DNA of 20,000 bases from an uncultured Methanosarcinales archaeon. GTDB taxonomy: Archaea; Nanobdellota; Nanobdellia; Woesearchaeales; CALCXY01. The position numbers were made by a program, and so were the translations under genes. This document shows, in pieces, positions 5,268 through 20,000 of the stretch. The stretch lies in assembly GCA_964385185.1 (NCBI GenBank), contig CAYLOA010000003.1, positions 56,736-76,735 of the forward strand, in the 5' to 3' direction. The notes below the pieces were generated by a model. The model had not been told where the DNA came from, ran no database searches, and was given only the letters and a program-made list of their open reading frames with translations. Position 1 is the first letter of the stretch. Every line of letters starts with the position of its first letter.

Positions 5268-5311
5268 ATAGATCACCTTGTTAGTTTATGAGATAGGGAA
5301 GTAGTGGATGA

Positions 5312-5375: not shown

Positions 5376-5417
5376 ATAGTAAGTTTTATATAGTAGTTGG
5401 ACAGTATACAGTATATT

Positions 5418-5500
5418 AGGAGTTTGGTGAGGCTCTCTGGAGATTTTCAACCCCAACGTTGATACCCTTCCTTCTACCGGGGAGTCTTACTATTTTTTTT
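5418..5500 (+). ncRNA. Candidate structured small RNA or leader RNA upstream of the Lrp gene
   Basis: TATA box TTTTATATA at 5384-5392; 16-bp helix 5425-5440/5477-5492 with 5 G-U pairs; inner hairpin TCAAC/GTTGA; T8 at 5493-5500. Confidence 0.6.
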
Positions 5501-7437: not shown

Positions 7438-7839
7438 ATGAATAAGAAAGCACAATGGGTGGGGATGATTCATAGAGCGTATCAGAGTGAAGAGTCACGA
7501 AAAAGAAAGAGCAAAGCATATCTTTTGAAGCATCAAGGATGGAGCGTAGAAGATATAGCTGTTAACCTTAAAGTATCTCCATCCACAGTGAGGAAATACT
7601 TACGGGAGAAACCTTCCTCTGAAAAAGTAACCTTTACTGTAATGAAGAAGGATAAACCTCAATCTCCACAGGACCGGAAAGAAATAGTAGTGATGTATCT
7701 GATGCCATTTGTATGGATCCCACTTATGGGTGTAATGTTATTTTTGTGGGATAGTTTGTGGTCAGTCCTCCTATCTATCGTTTTCATTGTGTTTATCTAT
7801 AAGGGAATAGTGAATCATATGAGGGGTAAAAGGAAGTAG
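7438..7839 (+). CDS. Helix-turn-helix protein with two C-terminal TM helices
   Basis: HTH GWSVEDIAVNLKVSPSTVRKYL and two hydrophobic segments at the C-terminus; TATA-like TTAATATA at ~7408-7415. Confidence 0.8.
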   Translation: MNKKAQWVGMIHRAYQSEESRKRKSKAYLLKHQGWSVEDIAVNLKVSPSTVRKYLREKPSSEKVTFTVMKKDKPQSPQDRKEIVVMYLMPFVWIPLMGVMLFLWDSLWSVLLSIVFIVFIYKGIVNHMRGKRK

Positions 7840-7920
7840 GTAGTTTTTACAAGCAACTTTCGCTACCTTTATTAACTACCAAAATCACCATATAATTATA
7901 ATTGTGCGAGGCGAATAAAC

Positions 7921-8241
7921 ATGACAATATCAAATAAATTAAAAAGAGAAATTAATGGTGTTACAACACTTTTGAGTTATTTTCATAATAACACAGATAT
8001 CATAGTTCCAGATTTAAGTCTAGAATTCATAGAGTTTGTTGATACTGACAGATATAATTGGAACCTAGACACTAGAGATTGTGTGAGACTTATTGAGAAA
8101 GTTGAACTTAATGTTAATGAGATGTCTACTAAAGATCAAGGATGGCAACAAGATATACATACATTGAAAAATCAAATCAGAATGATCTTGAATGTAATGC
8201 ATGCAAACCCTCCAGCCCAAGATCGAGCTATTTTTCAGTAA
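7921..8241 (+). CDS. Hypothetical protein
   Basis: 106-aa ORF with SD-like GAGGCGA at 7908-7914 and TATA-like TTTATTAA at 7868-7875. No family recognised. Confidence 0.7.
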   Translation: MTISNKLKREINGVTTLLSYFHNNTDIIVPDLSLEFIEFVDTDRYNWNLDTRDCVRLIEKVELNVNEMSTKDQGWQQDIHTLKNQIRMILNVMHANPPAQDRAIFQ

Positions 8242-8246
8242 CGTGG

Positions 8247-8279
8247 GTAATTATATAATTACGCCTAAAATTTTATAAA
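8247..8279 (+). promoter_or_regulatory. 16-bp palindrome followed by a TATA box
   Basis: GTAATTATATAATTAC (8247-8262) is a perfect palindrome; TTTTATAAA lies at 8271-8279. Confidence 0.55.
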
Positions 8280-8317
8280 CCCTCTATTAGAAGTAGATTC
8301 TCAGGAGGTGAAACTAA

Positions 8318-8416
8318 ATGGATAAAAAAGAAGATATTATGACTGCCAGTGGTGTATGGATAGCATCTACCACAGGATCAGAATATGTGCCAAATGTTTG
8401 GTATGTACCAAGATAA
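8318..8416 (+). CDS. 32-aa small protein (MDKKEDIMTASGVWIASTTGSEYVPNVWYVPR)
   Basis: Perfect SD AGGAGGTGA (8303-8311) 6 nt before the ATG, its own TATA box, and it fills the gap between two genes. It is below the ORF-track size cut-off. Confidence 0.7.
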   Translation: MDKKEDIMTASGVWIASTTGSEYVPNVWYVPR

Positions 8417-8461
8417 AGGATTTATCGAAACCTTTACAAACTTCTGGGACAATCATACGTT

Positions 8462-8821
8462 ATGGTTGTTCAAGTTGTTTTATTCATTGCTTTTGGAGTC
8501 CTCATATGGTACATTTTCACTCTTCATAGAAAAATCACAAATCAAAATGTGGCATATGGTCAATTGAAAAGTGAGCTTCATTCTAGATCTGTTAAGCATG
8601 GATTTGCTTGGGAGCAATTTGTTCCGTTCATTAAACATTTTCCTTACAACAAGAATAACTTCAAATTCCTAGGAATACCGGTTGATGGAATTGCCTTTGA
8701 GGATGGTAAAATAGTACTATGTGAATTTAAAACAGGGAATTCTCAACTAAACAATTCTCAGAAAAAAGTTAAAAAATTAGTAGAAGAAGGAAAGGTCACT
8801 TTCGAAGAATTCAGATACTAG
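8462..8821 (+). CDS. Membrane-anchored Holliday-junction-resolvase-like PD-(D/E)xK endonuclease (Endonuc_Holl/COG4741-like)
   Basis: N-terminal TM, then SRSVKHG..WEQFVPF, FLGIPVDGIAF and EFKTGNSQL (D..ExK catalytic motif). Confidence 0.85.
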   Translation: MVVQVVLFIAFGVLIWYIFTLHRKITNQNVAYGQLKSELHSRSVKHGFAWEQFVPFIKHFPYNKNNFKFLGIPVDGIAFEDGKIVLCEFKTGNSQLNNSQKKVKKLVEEGKVTFEEFRY

Positions 8822-8872
8822 TAGTTTAAATTCCGAAACCTTTACAAGTTATGACCATTCTCCTACCATAGT

Positions 8873-9526
8873 ATGAGAAGTAAAGAATATTTTATAATAA
8901 AAAATAAGTTTGATGATGAGCTTAAGAAGTTCATATGAAATAGGGATGGGAATAAGTGTAAGAATTGTAATAAAAATTTTTTTACTGAGGTAGACTATGT
9001 TAAAAAATATTGTAAAGAATTATCAAAAATTGAAGAGTTTGAAGTTTTTAAATGGACACAAACTTGTAACAATTGTTTAAAAGATACACCTAGAGTTAGT
9101 TATTATGTTGAACTTGATTATCCTTATTGTATAGGACAGCAAGAAAAGCTTGATAAACTTTTATTGGACAAGTATGAATTTGTTAAAGATGGTTTTAGTT
9201 GTACCATGGATTCTAAATGTATTGCTAACCATTATATTCATTGTGAAATGATTCAAGGAAATTACTATATTAGGGGTGAAATAAATGATCTCCGTTTGGA
9301 AGAAGGAATGCCTAAAGAATTAATGGATGGTACTATTCCCAATGTTTTGAAAAAAGAGGATTTACATATTATGGAAGAAAATGTTCAGCCAAGAATGGAA
9401 AAAGAACCCCATGAAGGTCATGTCCACCATATTGATGAAAATAGAATGAATAACCACCCTGACAATTTAATGCTCCTTTGTATCAATTGTCATACTAAGA
9501 TGCACTGCGAAGAGAAAAATGATTGA
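8873..9526 (+). pseudogene. HNH endonuclease with inserted zinc ribbon, interrupted by an in-frame TGA
   Basis: ATG 8873 is in frame with track ORF 9164-9526. A single TGA at 8936-8938 precedes NRDGNKCKNC. C-terminal HVHHIDENRMNN..NL..LCINCH is an HNH motif. Confidence 0.75.
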
Positions 9527-10967: not shown

Positions 10968-11423
10968 TTACTTTGCTAATTTTTTTATTTTTTCAATACT
11001 TTTTCGTAATGTTTGTGGAATGTCCGGAAAGGATTTTTTCATGGCATCAGTTATTTTTTCTACTGAAGTATCTTTAGTCATTGGTTCAAATTTTAGGTTG
11101 TGTTTTTTAGCTAAGATAACAGTTTCTTTATCTGTTAAGGGCAGGAATAATTTTACTAACTTCTTGTCTTCTACTATTTTTTTCTTGTTAAAAACTGTAT
11201 GAAGAAATGTGTTATTCTCATCATCTGTCGTCCAAGGGAGCACAATCTTGGTTGCTTTTTCCTCTTCAGATGTGAATGTAATGGGTAGGTCTCCTACAAT
11301 ATCTTTTACCATATGCTTGACAAATGGATCTTTAGCCAGAATGATGTCATTCTTTTGGAATATTCTCTCTAATCGAGCATACTTTCTGAGCTTTTTCTCC
11401 AATTTTTCAATTTCTTTATCCAT
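10968..11423 (-). CDS. Hypothetical protein resembling a degenerate TtuA/TtcA (PP-loop tRNA thiolase) fold
   Basis: 151-aa ORF with TATA TTTAAAAA about 25 nt upstream. Segments match TtuA/TtcA motifs by eye only. Confidence 0.7.
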   Translation of the reverse strand: MDKEIEKLEKKLRKYARLERIFQKNDIILAKDPFVKHMVKDIVGDLPITFTSEEEKATKIVLPWTTDDENNTFLHTVFNKKKIVEDKKLVKLFLPLTDKETVILAKKHNLKFEPMTKDTSVEKITDAMKKSFPDIPQTLRKSIEKIKKLAK

Positions 11424-11554
11424 TTATAGAAGTAGGTCTCTTTCTCTTTTTAAATTGTATTATGGAGTGTAGATTTCTTTGGTGTTCACTTGTTACCACT
11501 CACAGATGAACCATTAAGCGAAACATTTATATACCTGCTATACTACTCTATAGT

Positions 11555-11648
11555 AGTGTGGGGGATTGGTTTTATGACTAACCCTTATTTTCACAATCAC
11601 CTCTTTTTCCCTTCGGCGGGTTGCTTCGGTAACCCGTTGTTGGGTTTT
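11555..11648 (+). ncRNA. Candidate two-hairpin small RNA
   Basis: CGAAA BRE (11519-11523) and TTTATATA (11526-11533) with no credible downstream CDS; hairpin 1 at 11558-11588; hairpin 2 at 11609-11644 with a C(UUCG)G tetraloop and G-U pairs; T4 after it. Confidence 0.65.
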
Positions 11649-11652
11649 ATTA

Positions 11653-13515
11653 TCATTTATCTTTTACTTGTTTTCTATTTACTTTTTTGTATTTCTTTTT
11701 CTTCTTTTTCGATGTATTGATGAGTTTGAAATTTACTATTCCAGCAGCAAGGAATAATCCAGCGGCTAGTCCTGCAGTGAAGAGCACAATATTATTTTGA
11801 TATTTGACCAGGAACGATCCAATATAGCTATTTTTAAGATTCTTCAGTTCATTTCTTGTCATAAATCTTCCCGTTAAGGAGTTCTTGGTGTTGAAATACA
11901 TGTTAAAATTGCTGAGTTCTGCAGCATATTCTATGTAGATGAGTGATGAATACGGATCCTGAGTAGATAAGGAGTTAGCGTATTCATAATAACTGTATCC
12001 TAAGATTGGAAATATTCCTTTTTGTATTTCTCTGTGTAGACTTTTTTGAACAATAGCTAATTTATCTTTAATTACGGTTTGTAGTTGATCTTCTTGTACT
12101 CCTAGATTGTTTAAAACTACATTGGCTCCTGCTTTTGCTTTTGATGCTGTAAAGAGACAGAGGGCAAATGATCCATTTCTTTGATAGTATTTTGCTTCTT
12201 TTATTTCATCAGCTGCATCTTGGGCAGAATTGGGAAGATAGATTCTTGCATATTGTAATCGTTCTTCAGCTTCACTAATCTTTTTTACACACGATATTTC
12301 TACTACTTCTGGATCTAGTTTTGCTCTTGTAGATCCCGTATCAAAAAAGGTTGCCCATGATAGAGCCGAGTATCCTCTTTCCATAGCATATGCCAGTTGA
12401 TCTGTACTAGAGGAGTTTTGTTCTAAAATTTCTTCTAATTCAGTTATGGCTTCATCAACTCTTAATTTTACTATCAAATAACTTTGGACATCGGTTAATG
12501 TGGTGAGTGGTTTGTAATCAATTTCCCTACTTAAATCTGTAAATGTGAAATGTAATTCTTGTGCTCTCTCTTGAATTTGTTCTGATGTGAGGTTTTGTAA
12601 TTCAAGAATTAATCTTCTGTATTGATAATTTGCACCGAAGCAATACGATGCTGCAGAGTAATAGCTTCCTTCTCCCTGAGCTTTATCAGCTCGAGTGGTG
12701 AGGTTGATAATTTGTAATTCTCTTTCTGTCATATCTGGGCTGATTTCTACTTTCGTATGGGACTCCAGGAATTTATTTTGTAATCCTTGCGCTCTTGAGC
12801 AGAGTTTATCTGCTAAGTTTTCCATTACTTTGCTATACTGATCGTCAAGGATAATTTCATAATTTCCATTTGAATTGTTGATAGGCGTGTAATGTGCCAA
12901 GGCATCTACAATATCTCCTACTTCTATTACCTCAATTCCTATTTCATTTCCAAAGGCTACTAAGTCTAATGATTGGGATGTTATGTTTTCTTTATGATAT
13001 CTTGTACCCGATGGAATAAGAACTTTCTCTAGATGGTTGTCATTTGCAGCTTGTATTTTGGCTTTTATTCCCGATACAGGTCCTATAAAACCTCCTGAGT
13101 TGATTGTTCCGGTCATGGCAACCTTTGCATCTGGCTGTTCTCCTTCGAGTAACGCCATGGTAAGGATGGTGATGGCAGCACCGGCTGAAGGACCACCGAT
13201 AATATATGAATCAGAGTTTATGGTATAGATAAAGTCATATTTTGAACAGTCTTTTTCTAGAATGGAGCAAGCTACATCCTTTGCAAATCTTGTTGAGATT
13301 TGAGTATCTACTTTCGTTAATGGGAACGTTTCAATAAATACTCTCCCTTTACCTGATTGAAGTTCTAGGGTGAGGTCTGCTACCGATCCTTGATTTGTTT
13401 CTTCTTGGACTGCTAGTAGGGCTATATTTCCTGTCATAGGTCGGGCAGCAGCTGTTGTGCAGAGTATCAAAAGAAGTCCTATGAGTAATAGTGTTGATTT
13501 TGACAGGTTGTTCAT
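11653..13515 (-). CDS. Secreted, membrane-anchored Lon-type (peptidase S16) serine protease without AAA+ domain (COG1750-like)
   Basis: Signal peptide; IGGPSAGAA (catalytic Ser); MTGTINSGGFIGPVSGIKAK (catalytic Lys); helical region with YYSAASYCFGA; C-terminal TM and Lys-rich tail. Confidence 0.9.
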   Translation of the reverse strand: MNNLSKSTLLLIGLLLILCTTAAARPMTGNIALLAVQEETNQGSVADLTLELQSGKGRVFIETFPLTKVDTQISTRFAKDVACSILEKDCSKYDFIYTINSDSYIIGGPSAGAAITILTMALLEGEQPDAKVAMTGTINSGGFIGPVSGIKAKIQAANDNHLEKVLIPSGTRYHKENITSQSLDLVAFGNEIGIEVIEVGDIVDALAHYTPINNSNGNYEIILDDQYSKVMENLADKLCSRAQGLQNKFLESHTKVEISPDMTERELQIINLTTRADKAQGEGSYYSAASYCFGANYQYRRLILELQNLTSEQIQERAQELHFTFTDLSREIDYKPLTTLTDVQSYLIVKLRVDEAITELEEILEQNSSSTDQLAYAMERGYSALSWATFFDTGSTRAKLDPEVVEISCVKKISEAEERLQYARIYLPNSAQDAADEIKEAKYYQRNGSFALCLFTASKAKAGANVVLNNLGVQEDQLQTVIKDKLAIVQKSLHREIQKGIFPILGYSYYEYANSLSTQDPYSSLIYIEYAAELSNFNMYFNTKNSLTGRFMTRNELKNLKNSYIGSFLVKYQNNIVLFTAGLAAGLFLAAGIVNFKLINTSKKKKKKYKKVNRKQVKDK

Positions 13516-13567: not shown

Positions 13568-16500
13568 CTATTTATTCGCCCACTCATTGTAGATATCATG
13601 TGCCTCCTGTATTTTTTTGTAGAGTTTGTTTTTCATTGGTTTTGATACGTACTTTGAGGAGGCTAATATGGTGTACTCAGCTAATGCTTCTTTGTACCAT
13701 TTTCTAGCCATTCTGAATTCTTTTTTCTTCGCAAGTTTTTCCATAATATCTACTGTTTTCAGTACATTATTAGCTCTGCTCTTGATGTGGGCAGGATTAT
13801 CTTCTACCTTAGGGTGTTTATGGATTATTTTATTCATTCCCCATGGTTTCCACCAAGATATGTTATTTGTGTTCTTTGATTTTGGTTTTGATTTTCGGAC
13901 TATTGGTTTTTGTTGAACTTGTGGAGTTGGTTTTTCTTTGAATTGGAGATTCTTAATTGCTTTTGAGACGGTTCCCATATGACTCTTTATGCTGTGTTTG
14001 AGGGTGTGAATCGTGTAGGCAATTTTTGCTTTTTGTTCATCTGATAAGAAATTACTTTCCATGTATCTGTTTGCATCTTCCTCTAGTGATTTTTCTACAG
14101 AAGATGCGTCAATAGTATCTCCTGCTTCAAGGTAGTGTTCAATCTGAGTTTTCTTTTGATTGAATTTTGCAAGTAATGAAGATGATTCTATTCTCTGAAT
14201 ATTTCTATATGCTGTTGTTAACATTGCGTGGATTTGTTTCTTGATTATAGTTGGGAGTTGTCTGCCCTCAGGAGCGTTGTATTTTTTATGCATTTTTATG
14301 TATATGGCAATAGCTTTTTGAGGATTGTTTTCGTCTAGTAGTTGTAAGAGTTTCTTTGTGTTATCTTCAAACCATTGTTTTTTATCTTGGTGTGGTTCAT
14401 CATCTGTGGATTCTTTTTTGGCTGTAGTTTTATGTTTTCTTCTCCAGACCCAGATGAGTCCTATAAGTAAGGTGAAGAATATGATTCCACCAACTGAAGA
14501 TGAAGCATCTCCTCCAAATCCGAAAGCTCTTCCGATCAATCCAGATCTTCTACTTTGGCTGTTTTCAATAAATGTAAGTAGAGAGTCATCTTGACAACTA
14601 TCTAGTGTGAGTGGAGGTGTGCTTATCTCACATTCTCTAATGTCTAAGCATGATCTTTCTCTGAGTCCTTCATTTTCTTCTCCACAGGCTGACCATGGGG
14701 TGCAACTCCAATCCGGTACACAGTCTAATTGTGTTGGGGCTCCAGAGAGTGCGAATAAGGAGAAACTCTTTGGTCTTCCTACAAAGAATACAAAGCCATC
14801 TTTTTCATCTACTCTTTCAGTTGGTTGTGCAATCCATTTTGATCCCACCTGTTTGTATAGGCCAATACTAGGATCTTCTTCTAGAAGCTCAACAGGGATT
14901 CTGTAGACTATTTCTGCAAAGGCAAAGTCGTCCTTTTGTAGATTGTTTTCAATTTCGTAGTAGTTTAAGACGTTGGCATCGAATACTTGTTCTTCAGCTG
15001 GAGTTATTATTTTTATGACGTTGATGTTGACTCCTGTTCGCAGCTGTTTGAGGATAAATCGTATTCCTAACATATATTCATCTTTCACTGGGAGGTTGTA
15101 GGACTCTCCATCTCTTATTACAGCAAAGAATTTTCTATTTAGATTCTTGGATGCAATTGGTTTAGGAACTTGGATAGGTGCAATTGTTGAACTTCCTCCT
15201 CCTGCTCCTCCACCGCCACCGCCTCCTCCTGAGTCTCCGCTGGATGGAGTAGCTGTAGTACATCCTTCATCGATGGATCCATCACAATCATTATCAATAC
15301 TATCTGAACATACTTCTGCAACTCCTGGATTGACGTTTGCGTCATTATCATTACAATCCAATCCTGATCTTTGATCTGAATCATATCCATCACTGTCAAT
15401 GTCATTTGTTACAATCAGGGTAATGTTATTGCTGGCAATACTTGTTGACTGGTTAGTAGCGTTGATGATAATGTTAGTTGTAGTTGTGTTGTTCGGGAAT
15501 GGAATTAAGGTTAAGTTTTCTCCTGTAATGTTTACTGTGATATTTTCAGGGAAGGATGCTGTGAAATTAAATAAGTCATTATCATCATCCGAAAAGTAGA
15601 GTGAGAGGTTTAATGAAATATTAGTATCTGAAATCCAGGTTTGATTTGGAATAACTGATGCAGTTTGTGGTGTATCTCGTATGGTAATTGTAGTATTTGT
15701 AGCTGTGCCATTAGTAGTTCCATCTCCAAAGGTTACTTGGGCCGTCCAGTTTTGTGGATGGGAGGTATTTCCAGCCAAAATTGTGGAAATGTAGGTGAGA
15801 TTGTTGTCATTTATTCTAATACTGAACTGAGTAAGGTCTTCCCATTCTACCGTGTTGTTAAACCATCTAATGTGAGCTGTAATGTTATCATTATCTGTAT
15901 CTGTAGTGTTCACCCAAAGAGTTAGGTTTTCTAAGGTTCTATTTGCTGCTGATGTATTGGATGTGTTTAGAACTATTGAATTTGTAGTTGGGGCAGAGTT
16001 TGCAGGGAGGATGATTAGGGAGTGATTTTCAGGTGATGTGTTGAGCGTTCCGTCTCCTACCACTATTTGTGCCGTCCAATTATCATGTACCGTTGTGTTT
16101 GAGGATATAATTGTTGAAATAAGTTGGAGAATATTGTCTGTATTAGAGAAAGTAGTGTTAAGAGTTTTGTTTTCTGTGGAGTTGGTGAACCATCTTACAT
16201 ACGTTGTTAAAGTATCTGTGTCATTATCTGTTGAGTTTATCCACAGGGTTAGATTTTGTGTAGATAGATTGGAGTTTCCAGCTGATGTATTGAACACAAC
16301 TTGCGATATCGCTGGAGGGGTGTTGTTTATGAGTATTGAGAGGTTGAGGATTGAAGAGTTTAAGGTATTGTCTCCTACGATAATAGATGCTGTCCAATTT
16401 TCTCCTTTTGTTGTATTTGGACTGTAAATAGTCGAAACTAAGGTGAAACTATCAGCCGTTACATCGGTGGTAGCGAATGAGGTATCTCCATTGAGTGTAA

Positions 16501-19500
16501 CTGATTCATTAAACCACCTTACGCTTGCTGTGATGGTATCATCATCGATATCAGTAGCGTTAATCCACAAGGTGAGGTTTTCTGTGGTGTAATTGGTCGT
16601 TCCTGATGAGGTATTGATGACAAATGAAGTTATGGTTGGGACTGTTGTGTTAATTATCATTGAGAAGTTTTGTGGTGTAGAATTGAGAGTTCCATCATCT
16701 ATCGTGACCATAACCGTCCAATTTTGTCCTTTTGAAGTATTTGTTGAGGTAATAGTATCTCCAAAGGTAAGCACATTATCTGTCATGGTTGCAGTGATAC
16801 TTGTGTGTGGAGTCACTTCAGCTGAATTATTGAACCATCTGAGATGAGCTTTGATTGTATCACTGTTTTGATCAGTAGCATTAATGTAAATTGTTAAGTC
16901 TTCATCTGTTCTGTTTGTTTGATCTGTATCTGAGGTGTTTAATCTAGCTGAATTTAAGACTGGTCGAGTTGTGTTGATAATTAATGAGTAGTTTTGGATG
17001 GTAGTGTTGATTGTTCCATCTCCTATGATTACGGAGGCTGTCCAATTTTCATCTACCCTTGTGTCTGAGCTGTTTATTGTGAAGATAAGTGCTTGAGCAT
17101 TGTCTGTTAATCCTTTTACTTGGAAGGATTGATCAGGCCAGAATTTAGATGAGTTATGCCAATCGAAGTATGCAGTTAAAGTATCTGAATCCAAGTCTGT
17201 TGCGTTAATCCACAAGGTGAGATTCTGGAACGTTTCGTTATTTGCTGTTGGGCTGGAGTTTATGACGATTTCATTTACTGTTGGGATGGTATCGTTTATT
17301 ATCAATGAGAAATTTTGAGGGGTTGTGTTGAGACTTCCATCACTAATGATAATTTCTGCTGTCCAATTTTCATCTCTTGTAGTATTAGGATAGAAAATGG
17401 TATCTCTTAAGTTTAAGGTGTTCAATGTTATCGATTGAGCTGTGTAATTTGAAGTATTCTGCATTCGTATGGAATTATTGAACCATTTAATGTGTGCAAT
17501 CAAAGAATCTACATCTTCATCTGAGGCGTTGACCCATAATGTAAGATTATCTGATGTAAGATTGGTTGATCCTGCAGAGGTATTGATGAATGCCAACTCT
17601 AAGATAGGTCTTGTGCTGTTGATAATTAATGAATAGTTTATGAATGAGGTGTTACTTTCTCCATCTGAATATCTTGCCATAACAGTCCAATTTTGTCCTT
17701 TGGTTGTATTACCAGATGTTATGTTGCTGATTCTTGTTGGGAGGTCTAGGCTAATATTTTGAGATCCAGTTAAACCTGGGAGTTCAGTTGTTCCATTAAA
17801 CCATCTAAAGTAGACGGTAAACTGAGTCTCATTATCAAGATCTTGGATTTGGTGCCAAAGGGTTAGATTTTCATCTGTTTCATTTAATCTGTCTATGGAT
17901 GTATTTATTTCTGTGAGACTAGTATTTGGAGGGGAGTTTCGGATGATTATGGAAGCGTTGATGAATCCTGAAGCGTTATCTTCTCCATCATCAATTTGGA
18001 CCATAGCTGTCCAGTTTTCGTTTTTTACTATGGTAGAGGCATTTATGGTATCCAGAATCGTGAAGACATTATCCCCTAGTGATGCAATTCTGTTATCTGT
18101 TGAATCTGGCCATTCAATACTGTTATTGAACCATCTTATGTATGCATTGAGAGTATCCCCATTAGCATCGGTTGCGTTTATCCACACCGTTATATTCTCA
18201 TTTGTGTAATTTTCTACTGAACCTGATGAATTCAAGAGGATTTGATTGATTACAGGTATGGTATTTGCTGCTGCACCAATTTCTACTGAAACATTAGTTG
18301 CAGAAAGGTTGTCAATGCCATCTGTGATGGTTACTTGTGCTGTCCAATTTTCTCCATCACTCGTATTTCCAGAAGTTATGTTTCCAGCTAGGGTTAAGAC
18401 ATTGTCTGTAATGAGTGTGGTTTCGTTCAGAGTATTATTGATGAATAATACAGGTGTCCCAGTTACGTTTCTATACCAGAGGATGTATGCAGTAATGGTA
18501 TGACTATCTGCATCTGTTACATTCACGTACAGGGTAATATTATTATTCGTATCTTGATTACTTGAGGAAGTGTTAATACTGATACTGTTTAAGACAGGGG
18601 CAGTGTTGTTGATAATCAATGAGTAATTGATGAACGAAGAGTTATCATTTCCATCATAGTGAAGAGCCATGACTGTCCATTTTTCTCCTTGCGTAGTATT
18701 TCCAAAGGTAATATTGCTTATTATTCCTGGGGTGTTGAGACTTACATTGCTTTGTCCATTCAATCCTGGAACTTCTACCGTATCATTGAACCACCTATAG
18801 TGGACAGTAAACTGAGTTTCATTGTCTAGATCTGATATTTGATACCATAAAGTGAGATTTTCATCTGTTAAATTCGACCTTGTTGTGGATGAGTTTATTT
18901 CTGCTAATGTGACGTTGGCAGGAGAGTTTCTGATAATGAGTGAGTGATTCACAAATAAGGATGCATTTGATGCTCCATCATCTATTTGAATCATTGCTGT
19001 CCAATTTTGTATTTTTGTAGTGCTTGAAGCGTTGATATAGTCGAGTAGTGTGAAGGATCCATCATTTACTCCTGCAATTCTATTATCTGTTGAGTCAGGC
19101 CATTCAATACTGTTGTTGAACCATCTTACATACGCATTTATCGTATCATCATCTTCATCAGTGGCGTCTACCCATATTGTGAGATTTTCAAAGGTGTAAT
19201 TATCTGGAGTTGGGGATGCATTCAGGAGAACTGTTGTAATAGTAGGGGCAGTATTGTTGATAGTCAATGAGTAATTCGTAAATGAGGTGTTTATTTCACC
19301 ATCTCCGAATTTAGCCATAACTGTCCATGTGTCCCCTTTAGTAGTGTTTCCAAAGGTAAGATTTGAAATTCTTGATGCAACATCTAATCCTATACTTTGT
19401 GAGCCATTGAGTAACGGTAGTTCACTTGTGCCATTGAACCATCTATAGAATACTGTGAAAGAGGTTTCGTTGTCCAGATCTTGGATCGTATACCAGAGCG

Positions 19501-20000
19501 TTAGGTTTTCATCCGTTTCATTTAATCTGTCTATGGAAGCATTTATTTCTGCAACTGAGGCATTTGGTGGTGAGTTTCTTACAACGAATGATGTATTGAT
19601 AAATGCAGTTGCATTGGCAGCTCCATCATCTATTTGGATCATGGCAGTCCAGTTTTCATTCTTAATTATTGTTGAAGCATTTATGGTGTCTACCAATTTG
19701 AAAATATTATCAGCGAAACCTGTAATTCTATTATCTGTTGAATCTGGCCATTCTTTTGATTGGTTAAACCATCTCACATATGTATTAAGGGCATCATCAT
19801 CTGCATCTGAAGCGTTGATCCATACTGTAATGTTTTCATTCGTGTAGTTTTCTGAAGATCCTGATGAGTTTATGATTACTTCGTTAATTACAGGAGCTGT
19901 GTTTGTAATTTGGTTTACAAAGACCGAATAGTTTACAGGTGAAAGATTGGTATGGCCATCACTTATGGTTACTTGAGCTGTCCAGTTTTCATTTCCAGTT
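13568..20000 (-). CDS. Giant cell-surface adhesin-like glycoprotein (>2100 aa, 5'-truncated by the window edge)
   Basis: The frame stays open from 19999 (TGNENWTAQVTISDG...). It has tandem ~110-aa Ig/cadherin-like repeats, a DCND...DNDCDG motif, a Gly linker, a PGF-pre-PGF-like domain (SFSLFALSG), a WSC..WSAC Cys module, a TM and a basic helical tail. Confidence 0.92.
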   Translation of the reverse strand, partial: TGNENWTAQVTISDGHTNLSPVNYSVFVNQITNTAPVINEVIINSSGSSENYTNENITVWINASDADDDALNTYVRWFNQSKEWPDSTDNRITGFADNIFKLVDTINASTIIKNENWTAMIQIDDGAANATAFINTSFVVRNSPPNASVAEINASIDRLNETDENLTLWYTIQDLDNETSFTVFYRWFNGTSELPLLNGSQSIGLDVASRISNLTFGNTTKGDTWTVMAKFGDGEINTSFTNYSLTINNTAPTITTVLLNASPTPDNYTFENLTIWVDATDEDDDTINAYVRWFNNSIEWPDSTDNRIAGVNDGSFTLLDYINASSTTKIQNWTAMIQIDDGASNASLFVNHSLIIRNSPANVTLAEINSSTTRSNLTDENLTLWYQISDLDNETQFTVHYRWFNDTVEVPGLNGQSNVSLNTPGIISNITFGNTTQGEKWTVMALHYDGNDNSSFINYSLIINNTAPVLNSISINTSSSNQDTNNNITLYVNVTDADSHTITAYILWYRNVTGTPVLFINNTLNETTLITDNVLTLAGNITSGNTSDGENWTAQVTITDGIDNLSATNVSVEIGAAANTIPVINQILLNSSGSVENYTNENITVWINATDANGDTLNAYIRWFNNSIEWPDSTDNRIASLGDNVFTILDTINASTIVKNENWTAMVQIDDGEDNASGFINASIIIRNSPPNTSLTEINTSIDRLNETDENLTLWHQIQDLDNETQFTVYFRWFNGTTELPGLTGSQNISLDLPTRISNITSGNTTKGQNWTVMARYSDGESNTSFINYSLIINSTRPILELAFINTSAGSTNLTSDNLTLWVNASDEDVDSLIAHIKWFNNSIRMQNTSNYTAQSITLNTLNLRDTIFYPNTTRDENWTAEIIISDGSLNTTPQNFSLIINDTIPTVNEIVINSSPTANNETFQNLTLWINATDLDSDTLTAYFDWHNSSKFWPDQSFQVKGLTDNAQALIFTINSSDTRVDENWTASVIIGDGTINTTIQNYSLIINTTRPVLNSARLNTSDTDQTNRTDEDLTIYINATDQNSDTIKAHLRWFNNSAEVTPHTSITATMTDNVLTFGDTITSTNTSKGQNWTVMVTIDDGTLNSTPQNFSMIINTTVPTITSFVINTSSGTTNYTTENLTLWINATDIDDDTITASVRWFNESVTLNGDTSFATTDVTADSFTLVSTIYSPNTTKGENWTASIIVGDNTLNSSILNLSILINNTPPAISQVVFNTSAGNSNLSTQNLTLWINSTDNDTDTLTTYVRWFTNSTENKTLNTTFSNTDNILQLISTIISSNTTVHDNWTAQIVVGDGTLNTSPENHSLIILPANSAPTTNSIVLNTSNTSAANRTLENLTLWVNTTDTDNDNITAHIRWFNNTVEWEDLTQFSIRINDNNLTYISTILAGNTSHPQNWTAQVTFGDGTTNGTATNTTITIRDTPQTASVIPNQTWISDTNISLNLSLYFSDDDNDLFNFTASFPENITVNITGENLTLIPFPNNTTTTNIIINATNQSTSIASNNITLIVTNDIDSDGYDSDQRSGLDCNDNDANVNPGVAEVCSDSIDNDCDGSIDEGCTTATPSSGDSGGGGGGGGAGGGSSTIAPIQVPKPIASKNLNRKFFAVIRDGESYNLPVKDEYMLGIRFILKQLRTGVNINVIKIITPAEEQVFDANVLNYYEIENNLQKDDFAFAEIVYRIPVELLEEDPSIGLYKQVGSKWIAQPTERVDEKDGFVFFVGRPKSFSLFALSGAPTQLDCVPDWSCTPWSACGEENEGLRERSCLDIRECEISTPPLTLDSCQDDSLLTFIENSQSRRSGLIGRAFGFGGDASSSVGGIIFFTLLIGLIWVWRRKHKTTAKKESTDDEPHQDKKQWFEDNTKKLLQLLDENNPQKAIAIYIKMHKKYNAPEGRQLPTIIKKQIHAMLTTAYRNIQRIESSSLLAKFNQKKTQIEHYLEAGDTIDASSVEKSLEEDANRYMESNFLSDEQKAKIAYTIHTLKHSIKSHMGTVSKAIKNLQFKEKPTPQVQQKPIVRKSKPKSKNTNNISWWKPWGMNKIIHKHPKVEDNPAHIKSRANNVLKTVDIMEKLAKKKEFRMARKWYKEALAEYTILASSKYVSKPMKNKLYKKIQEAHDIYNEWANK
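15675..20000 (-). repeat. Tandem array of 13 complete plus 1 partial ~330-nt coding repeats
   Basis: Recurring N..P, N[LI]T[LIV]W, DxD, [RK]WFN, NWT and DG motifs. Near-identical DNA segments are offset by 1638 nt (18093/19731; 17881/19519). Confidence 0.9.

Follow-up and report, generated by a model that had tools for sequence, protein, structure and literature searches.

A small RNA gene family of DPANN archaea predicted to expose a copy of the 16S rRNA 3′ tail

Introduction

Does a short intergenic stretch in the genome of a DPANN archaeon encode an RNA of its own, and what could such an RNA do with a segment that reads like the mRNA-docking tail of the ribosome? This question is raised by one locus in a window of 20,000 nt (the whole stretch of DNA analysed here; the genome that holds it is called G000, its same-genus relative G001, and the order of G000 the own order). 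A first-pass annotation had read the locus as a stand-alone RNA with two hairpins and, between them, an unpaired mimic of the anti-Shine-Dalgarno (anti-SD) sequence, and had proposed that it could mask SD-led mRNAs in trans. Almost nothing is known about the RNA regulators of DPANN archaea, which have not yet been grown alone, and translation initiation in these archaea is mixed, with both leaderless and SD-led mRNAs. An RNA family with a recognisable functional part, which here points to translation initiation, offers a concrete and abundant handle on RNA regulation in this group.

The locus has the features of a plus-strand RNA gene

The intergenic region 11424–11652 is bounded by two open reading frames (ORFs) on the minus strand (Table 1). 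All parts of the element that the first-pass annotation had placed on the plus strand between 11519 and 11648 were found in their places, namely the BRE/TATA box, a 5′ hairpin, the linker AUCACCUC (11596–11603), which is open in the predicted fold, a second hairpin with the expected cUUCGg loop and G-U pairs, and a U tail directly 3′ of it. The CCC at 11609–11611 ends the core and is already part of hairpin 2. Folding agreed with the plus strand as the RNA strand: on this strand, 11555–11648 reached −37.3 kcal/mol (z = −5.17), and none of 200 shuffled sequences folded as well, versus −19 kcal/mol on the minus strand (z = −0.73), where 49 of 200 shuffles did. The TATA spacing alone places the predicted transcription start at about 11555/11556, and the U tail is likely an archaeal termination signal at which the transcript would end. 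G000 holds a single copy of the RNA gene, and the window locus was identical in several metagenomes (four DNA runs mapped). On sequence grounds, the locus is a real gene of a non-coding RNA of about 90 nt with its own promoter.

Table 1. Coordinates of the features of the RNA locus in the window, and of example copies on virus contigs
Feature	Position	Strand	Basis or remark
Upstream half-site GTTACCACTC	11492..11501	+	about 25 nt 5′ of BRE; TATA-anchored promoter alignment
BRE/TATA box CGAAACATTTATATA	11519..11533	+	sequence read; recurs upstream of family members
Promoter-proximal palindrome TACTACTCTATAGTAGT	11541..11557	+	overlaps predicted start; kept in G001
Variable 5′ part: G-run GUGUGGGGG and hairpin 1	11556..11594	+	fold; lineage-specific
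Invariant core AAUCACCUCUUUUUCCC	11595..11611	+	AUCACCUC equals the 16S 3′ tail, then U5
Hairpin 2, CCC-UU-11 bp-UUCG loop-UU-GGG	11609..11644	+	covariation; three G-U pairs
U tail, T4	11645..11648	+	T2–T8 after hairpin in family members
Convergent 620-aa gene, partial Lon_C (S16 protease) domain	11653..13515	-	Pfam
Divergent 151-aa gene	10968..11423	-	no Pfam family
Full virus copies (L304–L315), examples	L307:7298–7351; L308:6718–6767; L314:10000–10077; L315:168–224	-	

A module of core, hairpin and U tail is conserved across orders

The family was traced with two words and one gapped pattern. The exact 15-mer TCACCTCTTTTTCCC occurs in 190/401 genomes of the class, or 176 of the 282 high-quality ones, and its reversed control in 3 genomes; a hand count of the rows of the class table gave 64/87 same-order genomes. 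With up to two mismatches, the 20-mer CACAATCACCTCTTTTTCCC was found in 140/401 genomes of the own order, and its reversed control matched three or four genomes (read from the table). This tally of 140 includes unpublished genomes (G273, G209, G182, G244, G207, G132, G303, G370 and G112); a locus of one of them (L027, from G273) forms one row in the alignments and synteny counts, and the conclusions are independent of the unpublished genomes. Four of five complete ‘negative’ genomes of the own order carry core variants with U4, U6 or U5-G at 30–39 bits, and the match in the fifth, at 17 bits, was not convincing. In other orders of the class, one genome was taken from each of five negative families, and these yielded nothing convincing (one match, 19 bits), so the RNA does not seem to be essential.

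The gapped pattern TCACCTCTTTTTCCCN{26,56}GGGTT, scanned against one genome per GTDB species, matched at least 120 stretches, with an estimated number of about 1100 across the GTDB species genomes. The family would thus span roughly a thousand species-level genomes, with one to three copies apiece. Among the 80 titles listed for this pattern, 78 are archaeal (Woesearchaeota, Pacearchaeota, Nanoarchaeota, Nanoarchaeia, Nanobdellota, ‘archaeon’ and uncultured Methanosarcinales; mostly Woese-, Pace- and Nanoarchaeota) and 2 bacterial, the latter of which may be chance matches or mis-binned contigs. About twenty of the RNA-carrying records among the titles listed are third-party assemblies titled ‘uncultured Methanosarcinales archaeon’; these titles may be loose labels, as the RNA loci resemble those of Woese- and Pacearchaeota.

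To derive the anatomy of the family, 31 loci of the own order were compared with 30 from other orders. Left out were duplicates of the window, L002 and L008 (L001, L031, L030, L016), BLAST matches to the promoter only (L003, L004, L006), two rows with the word but no promoter or hairpin, probably due to chance (L023, L072), a variant that the regular expression did not parse (L037) and a locus at a contig end (L038). The automatic consensus model R1 kept only 8 pairs, and model R2 was used instead; this covariance model can be applied directly to annotate metagenomes and metatranscriptomes. The shared unit reads [A]UCACCUCUUUU(U)CCC, followed by a hairpin closed by CCC/GGG and by U2–U8.

In the own order, 34 modules were aligned blind to structure with MAFFT (alignment A5). 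Here, 88.9% of the hairpin cells were paired compared with 64.6% after shuffling, both sides had changed in 12/14 pairs, and the covariation score was 0.670 versus 0.231 for shuffled alignments, with none of 500 shuffles scoring as high and slid controls at or below 0.25. The hairpin was also more stable on the plus strand in 33/34 modules (means of −24.2 versus −16.8 kcal/mol). The hairpin of the other orders is longer, and the 29 sequences aligned to R2 gave 86.6% paired cells versus 69.5%, changes on both sides in 15/19 pairs and, in an alignment whose fit to the R2 structure favours the score, a covariation of 0.461 versus 0.180 (slid controls at or below 0.18). The homolog search and covariation analysis that the first-pass annotation had proposed thus spoke for it, as the hairpin covaries strongly in two independent sets. 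Distant own-order genomes share the plan of the RNA with hairpin sequences that are wholly different.

The part 5′ of the core behaves differently. Hairpin 1, which had been described as an integral part of the RNA, is real in the sequence of the window but is no conserved feature of the family. G001 keeps the promoter, the palindrome close to the transcription start, the linker TTTCAtAATCACCTCTTTTTCCC and hairpin 2, where the changes relative to the window are G-U to A-U and G-C to G-U; its hairpin-1 segment has been replaced by a longer one, and this insertion holds a degenerate second module that R2 matches at 23.5 bits (L002:1566–1608, minus strand). The same segment is also replaced in a co-occurring relative known from metagenome contigs. 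By these comparisons, the conserved unit of the predicted RNA is AUCACCUCUUUU with the hairpin and the U tail, and hairpin 1 is lineage-specific.

How open the core lies was estimated from partition functions. In the predicted transcript of the window (row L031), the core UCACCUCU is unpaired with a probability of 0.98. Across the own order, 17/37 modules have a core that is unpaired at 0.7 or more and 9/37 one at 0.3 or less, and by eye about half of the own-order RNAs pair a 5′ G-run (GGGGGUG-like) with the core in their minimum free energy fold. Five loci (L007, L009, L014, L017 and L032) carry tandem modules in one predicted transcript; for such tandem RNAs the prediction is that a 5′ G-run sequesters the first core and leaves the second free. 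For the other orders, 27/30 modules reached 0.7 or more, the three low values stemming from faulty end parsing. The linker is the most conserved part of the RNA and is identical across orders; the objection that the first-pass annotation had foreseen, a linker that is not conserved, therefore fell away. From these sequences, the RNA family is judged to be deeply conserved in DPANN archaea, in at least two orders. The alignments show a plus-strand, structure-constrained RNA gene with a promoter, whose predicted open segment is invariant and equals the 3′ tail of 16S rRNA.

A conserved repeat flanks the promoter

Promoters of family members repeatedly carry the motif CGAAAnnTTTAWATA. The spacing from the 8-bp TATA box to CACCTC in the other orders is 23 nt at 27/29 loci and 22 nt at the remaining 2, and because of it the core is predicted to form the very 5′ end of the RNA there; the variable 5′ part, comprising the G-run and hairpin 1, is absent. 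In the own order, the distance between TATA box and core is 30–110 nt. On either side of the TATA box, the own-order and other-order groups alike show a repeat, TTACYACTC(T) with its complement (A)GAGTAGTAA, which could be an operator; in the window, the half-site at 11492–11501 is one of its arms. The occurrence of the repeat as TTACTACTC/GAGTAGTAA across orders suggests a dedicated conserved regulator, and the repeat likewise suggests that the RNA may be made only under certain conditions. No second convincing copy of the repeat together with a TATA box was found in G000, where no regulon was seen.

Copies of the RNA occur on contigs of tailed viruses

The gapped pattern also matched 14 contigs of IMG/VR. 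Nine of the matches score 29–50 bits with R2, which is the range of the own-order host copies, and at least 8 copies have a TATA box at 22–35 nt and a stable hairpin (examples in Table 1); one of them reads GAAACATTTATATA, then 22 nt, then TCACC. Four matches are doubtful (L291/L292 and L302/L303), and L298/L312 looks like a chance match in coding sequence. The six annotated contigs with the RNA encode a terminase large subunit, portal, major head, tape-measure or tail proteins, besides DNA polymerases and primase-helicases, and their structural and terminase genes identify them as tailed viruses. Three contigs have the RNA immediately 3′ of terL, in the same orientation. The presence of the RNA on such contigs suggests that it matters in infection. 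SD sites of the virus genes are mostly of the GGAGG type, with 24 versus 6 for GGTGA/AGGTG among 124 ORFs, as against 48 versus 80 among 1139 ORFs of G000, a comparison between unrelated genomes that is a hint at most.

Relation to known RNA families

A search of the window with Rfam 15 gave no match at the gathering threshold, and between 11500 and 11670 the best match at E values of up to 10 had an E of 0.97, i.e. noise. In 8 related loci, no Rfam family matched at the RNA, the only match being an unrelated tRNA. The Rfam check that the first-pass annotation had called for thus turned up no family at the locus. ARAGORN predicted no genes in the window, neither a tRNA nor half of a split tRNA being found. 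A C/D box sRNA was rejected, as neither TGATGA nor CTGA occurs in 11555–11648, and so was an H/ACA sRNA: hairpin 2 forms an almost unbroken helix with U4, and not ACA, after it, and the hairpins of the family are without a conserved pocket. Among the papers searched, none contained the motif strings and none was found to describe such an RNA in these lineages. The suggestion that the locus represents an undescribed class of DPANN sRNAs agrees with the lack of an Rfam match and with the absence of the motif from the papers searched.

The RNA nevertheless has sequence features expected of an anti-SD-seed sRNA, namely promoter and terminator signals of its own and a conserved, SD-complementary seed that is predicted to be accessible. 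As expected of an RNA of the Sm/Hfq type, its sequence has a U tract, a terminal hairpin and a U tail, and its genome encodes an LSM gene; as expected of a mimic of pre-16S rRNA, it combines identity with the 16S tail and a U run. As outlined in PMC5867862, sRNA41 of M. mazei is proposed to mask ribosome-binding sites and thereby to repress translation, and the RNA described here resembles it as an independent archaeal sRNA for which the same masking is proposed. No relation in sequence or structure to sRNA41 was found (no Rfam match). To our knowledge sRNA41 is restricted to Methanosarcina, whereas the DPANN family spans at least two orders, has an invariant copy of the 16S tail plus U run of 12–15 nt and occurs in viruses.

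In bacteria, C-rich or anti-SD-seed sRNAs include RoxS/RsaE, 6C and the CcsR/alpha-r14 ‘cuckoo’ RNAs, whose hairpin loops carry, often more than once, the word CCUCC or CCCC. The DPANN RNA is like these in that an exposed C-rich word faces G-rich ribosome-binding sites and in its unusually deep conservation. It differs in showing a linear, 5′-proximal AUCACCUC without the second C of CCUCC, and the bacterial RNAs, from another domain of life, are not homologous to it. A further likeness is to the module of enterobacterial Hfq-binding sRNAs, which consists of a U-rich tract, a terminator hairpin and a 3′ U tail: seed, U tract, GC-rich hairpin and U tail follow each other in the same order here, but an Sm-protein partner is only putative, and LSM genes also occur in lineages without the RNA. 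With the 3′ end of 16S or pre-16S rRNA, finally, the RNA shares an identical AUCACCUC with a U run after it, yet it lies outside any rRNA gene, has one C fewer and lacks helix 45. The exact and extended copy of the tail, the class-wide spread and the virus copies set the family apart from the known anti-SD-seed sRNAs; by analogy, the RNA would work like these and yet belongs to none of them.

The core in relation to the 16S rRNA tail and to SD regions

The 16S genes of three relatives end in GGATCACCTCCT, followed by T runs. When AUCACCUC was compared with this tail, all 8 of 8 positions matched, and a U run comes next in both (three relatives). Every family member is without one C of CCUCC, and none has a counterpart of helix 45. 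The only 16S gene of G000 is cut at a contig end (C20:1–1004, model positions 4–982), where its own tail is not readable. Two of the three relatives, G010 and G029, have both the sRNA and a normal 16S end, which argues that the RNA is no replacement for a missing tail. Duplexes of the core with 16S rRNA ± 1.5 kb of three relatives were no better than those of shuffled cores.

Counted over 1139 crude ORFs of G000, words of the SD type are enriched ahead of starts: at −18 to −4 we found GAGGT 56, AGGTG 54, GGTGA 53, GGAGG 46 and GTGAT 41 times, versus 7, 7, 6, 4 and 3 times at −40 to −26. The core is therefore complementary to a real class of start regions. One such site named in the first-pass annotation, AGGTGAT ahead of the AdoHcyase gene, was confirmed at 5272–5278 on the minus strand. 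Four lineages that have the RNA and four that lack it were sampled for SD use, which was alike in the former and in three of the latter, whereas the remaining RNA-less genome (24% GC) showed almost none; this comparison covers 8 sampled genomes and G000, with crude ORF calls on 63–100 kb each. As SD use is similar with and without the RNA, it does not predict where the RNA is present.

A single longer complement stood out in the ftsZ 5′ leader, which in G000 and G001 contains a perfect 14-nt complement of the core (GGGAAAAAGAGGTG). It lies on the minus strand of contig C22 in G000, about 40 nt upstream of the FtsZ gene (C22:10591–11607), and in G001 (L079) it serves as the ribosome-binding site. 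As a general target ftsZ was rejected, the complement being confined to one genus and absent from 28 other own-order orthologue loci and from 11 loci of other orders. An LSM (Sm-like) gene is present in G000 (C10:20661–20852), and the LSM domain occurs in 375/401 genomes, including lineages without the RNA; being near-universal, it neither supports nor discriminates between the readings discussed below.

Proposed mode of action and competing readings

The exposed copy of the 16S tail means that the RNA probably acts on the start of translation. Our main reading, to which we give a probability of roughly 45%, is that it acts in trans by pairing with GAGGUGAU-type SD regions and competes with the 30S subunit. 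The gene is laid out as a promoter with an operator-like inverted repeat, an optional and fast-evolving 5′ part, an invariant AUCACCUCUUUU(U)CCC that is predicted to be single-stranded, a GC-rich hairpin that varies freely in sequence but keeps its pairing, and the U tail. The core, as a copy of the 16S rRNA 3′ tail, would pair with (A/G)GAGGUGAU-type SD regions, and the RNA would then compete with the 30S subunit for the regions so paired; the U tract, hairpin and U tail would provide termination and stability, and perhaps a platform for an Sm-like protein. SD pairing appears the most likely mode because the core is accessible or 5′-terminal, because its complements lie at real starts, and because there are archaeal and bacterial precedents. 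If this is true, no archaeal regulatory sRNA described to date would be more widely conserved, and the RNA would be a natural imitation of the tail by which the ribosome docks on mRNA. Against SD masking we count the invariant UUUU(U)CCC, which SD pairing does not explain, the presence of the RNA irrespective of SD use, the restriction of the ftsZ complement to one genus, and the 9/37 own-order cores that are predicted to be mostly paired with a 5′ G-run. Moreover, contigs of the RNA-carrying viruses are strongly SD-led, which fits poorly with a simple global masking of SD sites.

In a less likely but serious rival reading, the RNA is a decoy of the 16S or pre-16S 3′ end and AUCACCUC with its U run binds or titrates a protein that handles the tail. 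Proteins that could be involved are the endonuclease Nob1, the KH protein Pno1/Dim2, an initiation factor or a nuclease. As the 16S genes of the three relatives run from GGATCACCTCCT directly into T runs, AUCACCUC plus U4–6 resembles the precursor, beyond the mature tail. The U run shows the same invariance as CACCUC and is unexplained by SD pairing, the RNA occurs independently of SD use, and SD-rich viruses carry it, for which freed ribosomal tails would be of help and an SD mask a harm; it is this invariance, this independence and these viruses that give the decoy its weight. Against a decoy stand the C of CCUCC that every member lacks and the want of a counterpart of helix 45; the predicted RNA of the other orders even begins with the core itself. 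In addition, no tail-binding protein was found linked to the locus, and the neighbouring genes differ between orders.

We consider it similarly improbable that the RNA is a housekeeping or RNP RNA of another kind, made for a protein partner or a virus–host factor, with an incidental likeness to 16S rRNA. Class-wide conservation, unusually deep for base-pairing sRNAs, would suit such an RNA, as would a module whose make-up of core, hairpin and U tail is fixed and which can occur as tandem duplicates, and the carriage of the RNA by tailed viruses, just downstream of terL in three contigs. An 8/8 match to the 16S tail is nonetheless unlikely to be incidental where the remaining sequence varies freely, no protein neighbour is conserved across orders, and no copy turned up in five genomes that represent five other families of the class.

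A more far-reaching proposal, which we hold to be doubtful, combines several of these elements: the RNA would be a class-wide, virus-carried mimic of the (pre-)16S 3′ end that switches the mRNA choice of ribosomes, and with which tailed viruses tilt translation towards their own messages. It might do so by soaking up a factor that occupies the ribosomal tail. Alternatively, it might mask SDs of the GGUGAU type alone and spare those of the GGAGG type, because the core is without the second C of CCUCC. Carrying the RNA would then let tailed viruses, with their mostly GGAGG-led genes, favour their own messages.

Gene neighbourhood argues against a role tied to the adjacent genes

The neighbours of the RNA are conserved within the own order and replaced outside it. 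A homologue of the 620-aa Lon_C protein lies convergent beside the RNA in 25/31 own-order loci, a PLD-like gene is nearby in 16/31, and a homologue of the 151-aa protein adjoins the RNA in 6/31, versus 0/30 for all three in the other orders. There, the divergent neighbour is ScpA, as seen by Pfam in 4/4 cases and by its N-terminal motif in 12/12 translations (by eye). Since the neighbours differ between orders, their synteny reflects inheritance within each order and is not what defines the function of the RNA.

These counts also bear on the idea that the locus is only a cis element of the convergent Lon-like protease gene, be it a terminator, a 3′ UTR or a cis-antisense RNA acting on that mRNA alone, which we regard as very improbable. 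It is true that the stop codon of the protease gene lies 5 nt past the U tail, that the homologue holds the same convergent position in most own-order loci, and that the minus strand has no T run, so that transcripts of the protease gene may continue through the locus as antisense of the RNA; yet the G-U pairs and T runs are confined to the plus strand, which has a dedicated promoter, the protease homologue is missing from all other-order loci with ScpA in its place, and the virus copies sit among structural genes. Because the family occurs without the protease gene, a terminator or 3′ UTR is largely refuted, and it was rejected in view of the minus-strand z of −0.73 and the plus-only T runs as well. 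That the RNA gene stands alone, as first proposed, is thus borne out by its own BRE/TATA box and by family members that lack the protease gene in other orders and in viruses.

A coding role, with the minus-strand GAGGTGAT as SD plus RTG start of a tiny ORF or with the 76-aa plus-strand ORF (11490–11720) that does exist here, is almost certainly wrong: the minus-strand sequence is GAGGTGATTGTG in the window and GAGGTGATTATG in G001, an SD and a start at plausible spacing, but the ORF that follows has 18 aa here, 2 aa in G001 and unrelated peptides in other members, several common variants have no start codon at this place, indels between G000 and G001 break any plus-strand frame, and the pattern of substitutions is that of RNA pairing.

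Other features of the window

The first-pass annotation had paired the locus with a second element, the ‘5418 RNA’, as a sibling of the same class. This did not hold, as that element is without the core, is not matched by R2 and has no homologue in 20 relatives. At 5405–5500, the plus strand has a TATA box that looks like a promoter, then a long imperfect hairpin (z = −3.18) and T9, and the whole lies upstream of a gene for an Lrp/AsnC-type regulator; BLAST detected no homologue of this element in the 20 relatives, the same genus included. On the minus strand, a giant ORF of at least 2069 aa (13568–19777) runs to the end of the window, and its sole Pfam match is a short MopE-type metal-binding motif. 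On the plus strand, 7438–9526 holds small genes with HTH/terminase-small-like, Holliday-junction-resolvase-like and HNH endonuclease domains, and this run of genes may be the remnant of a mobile element.
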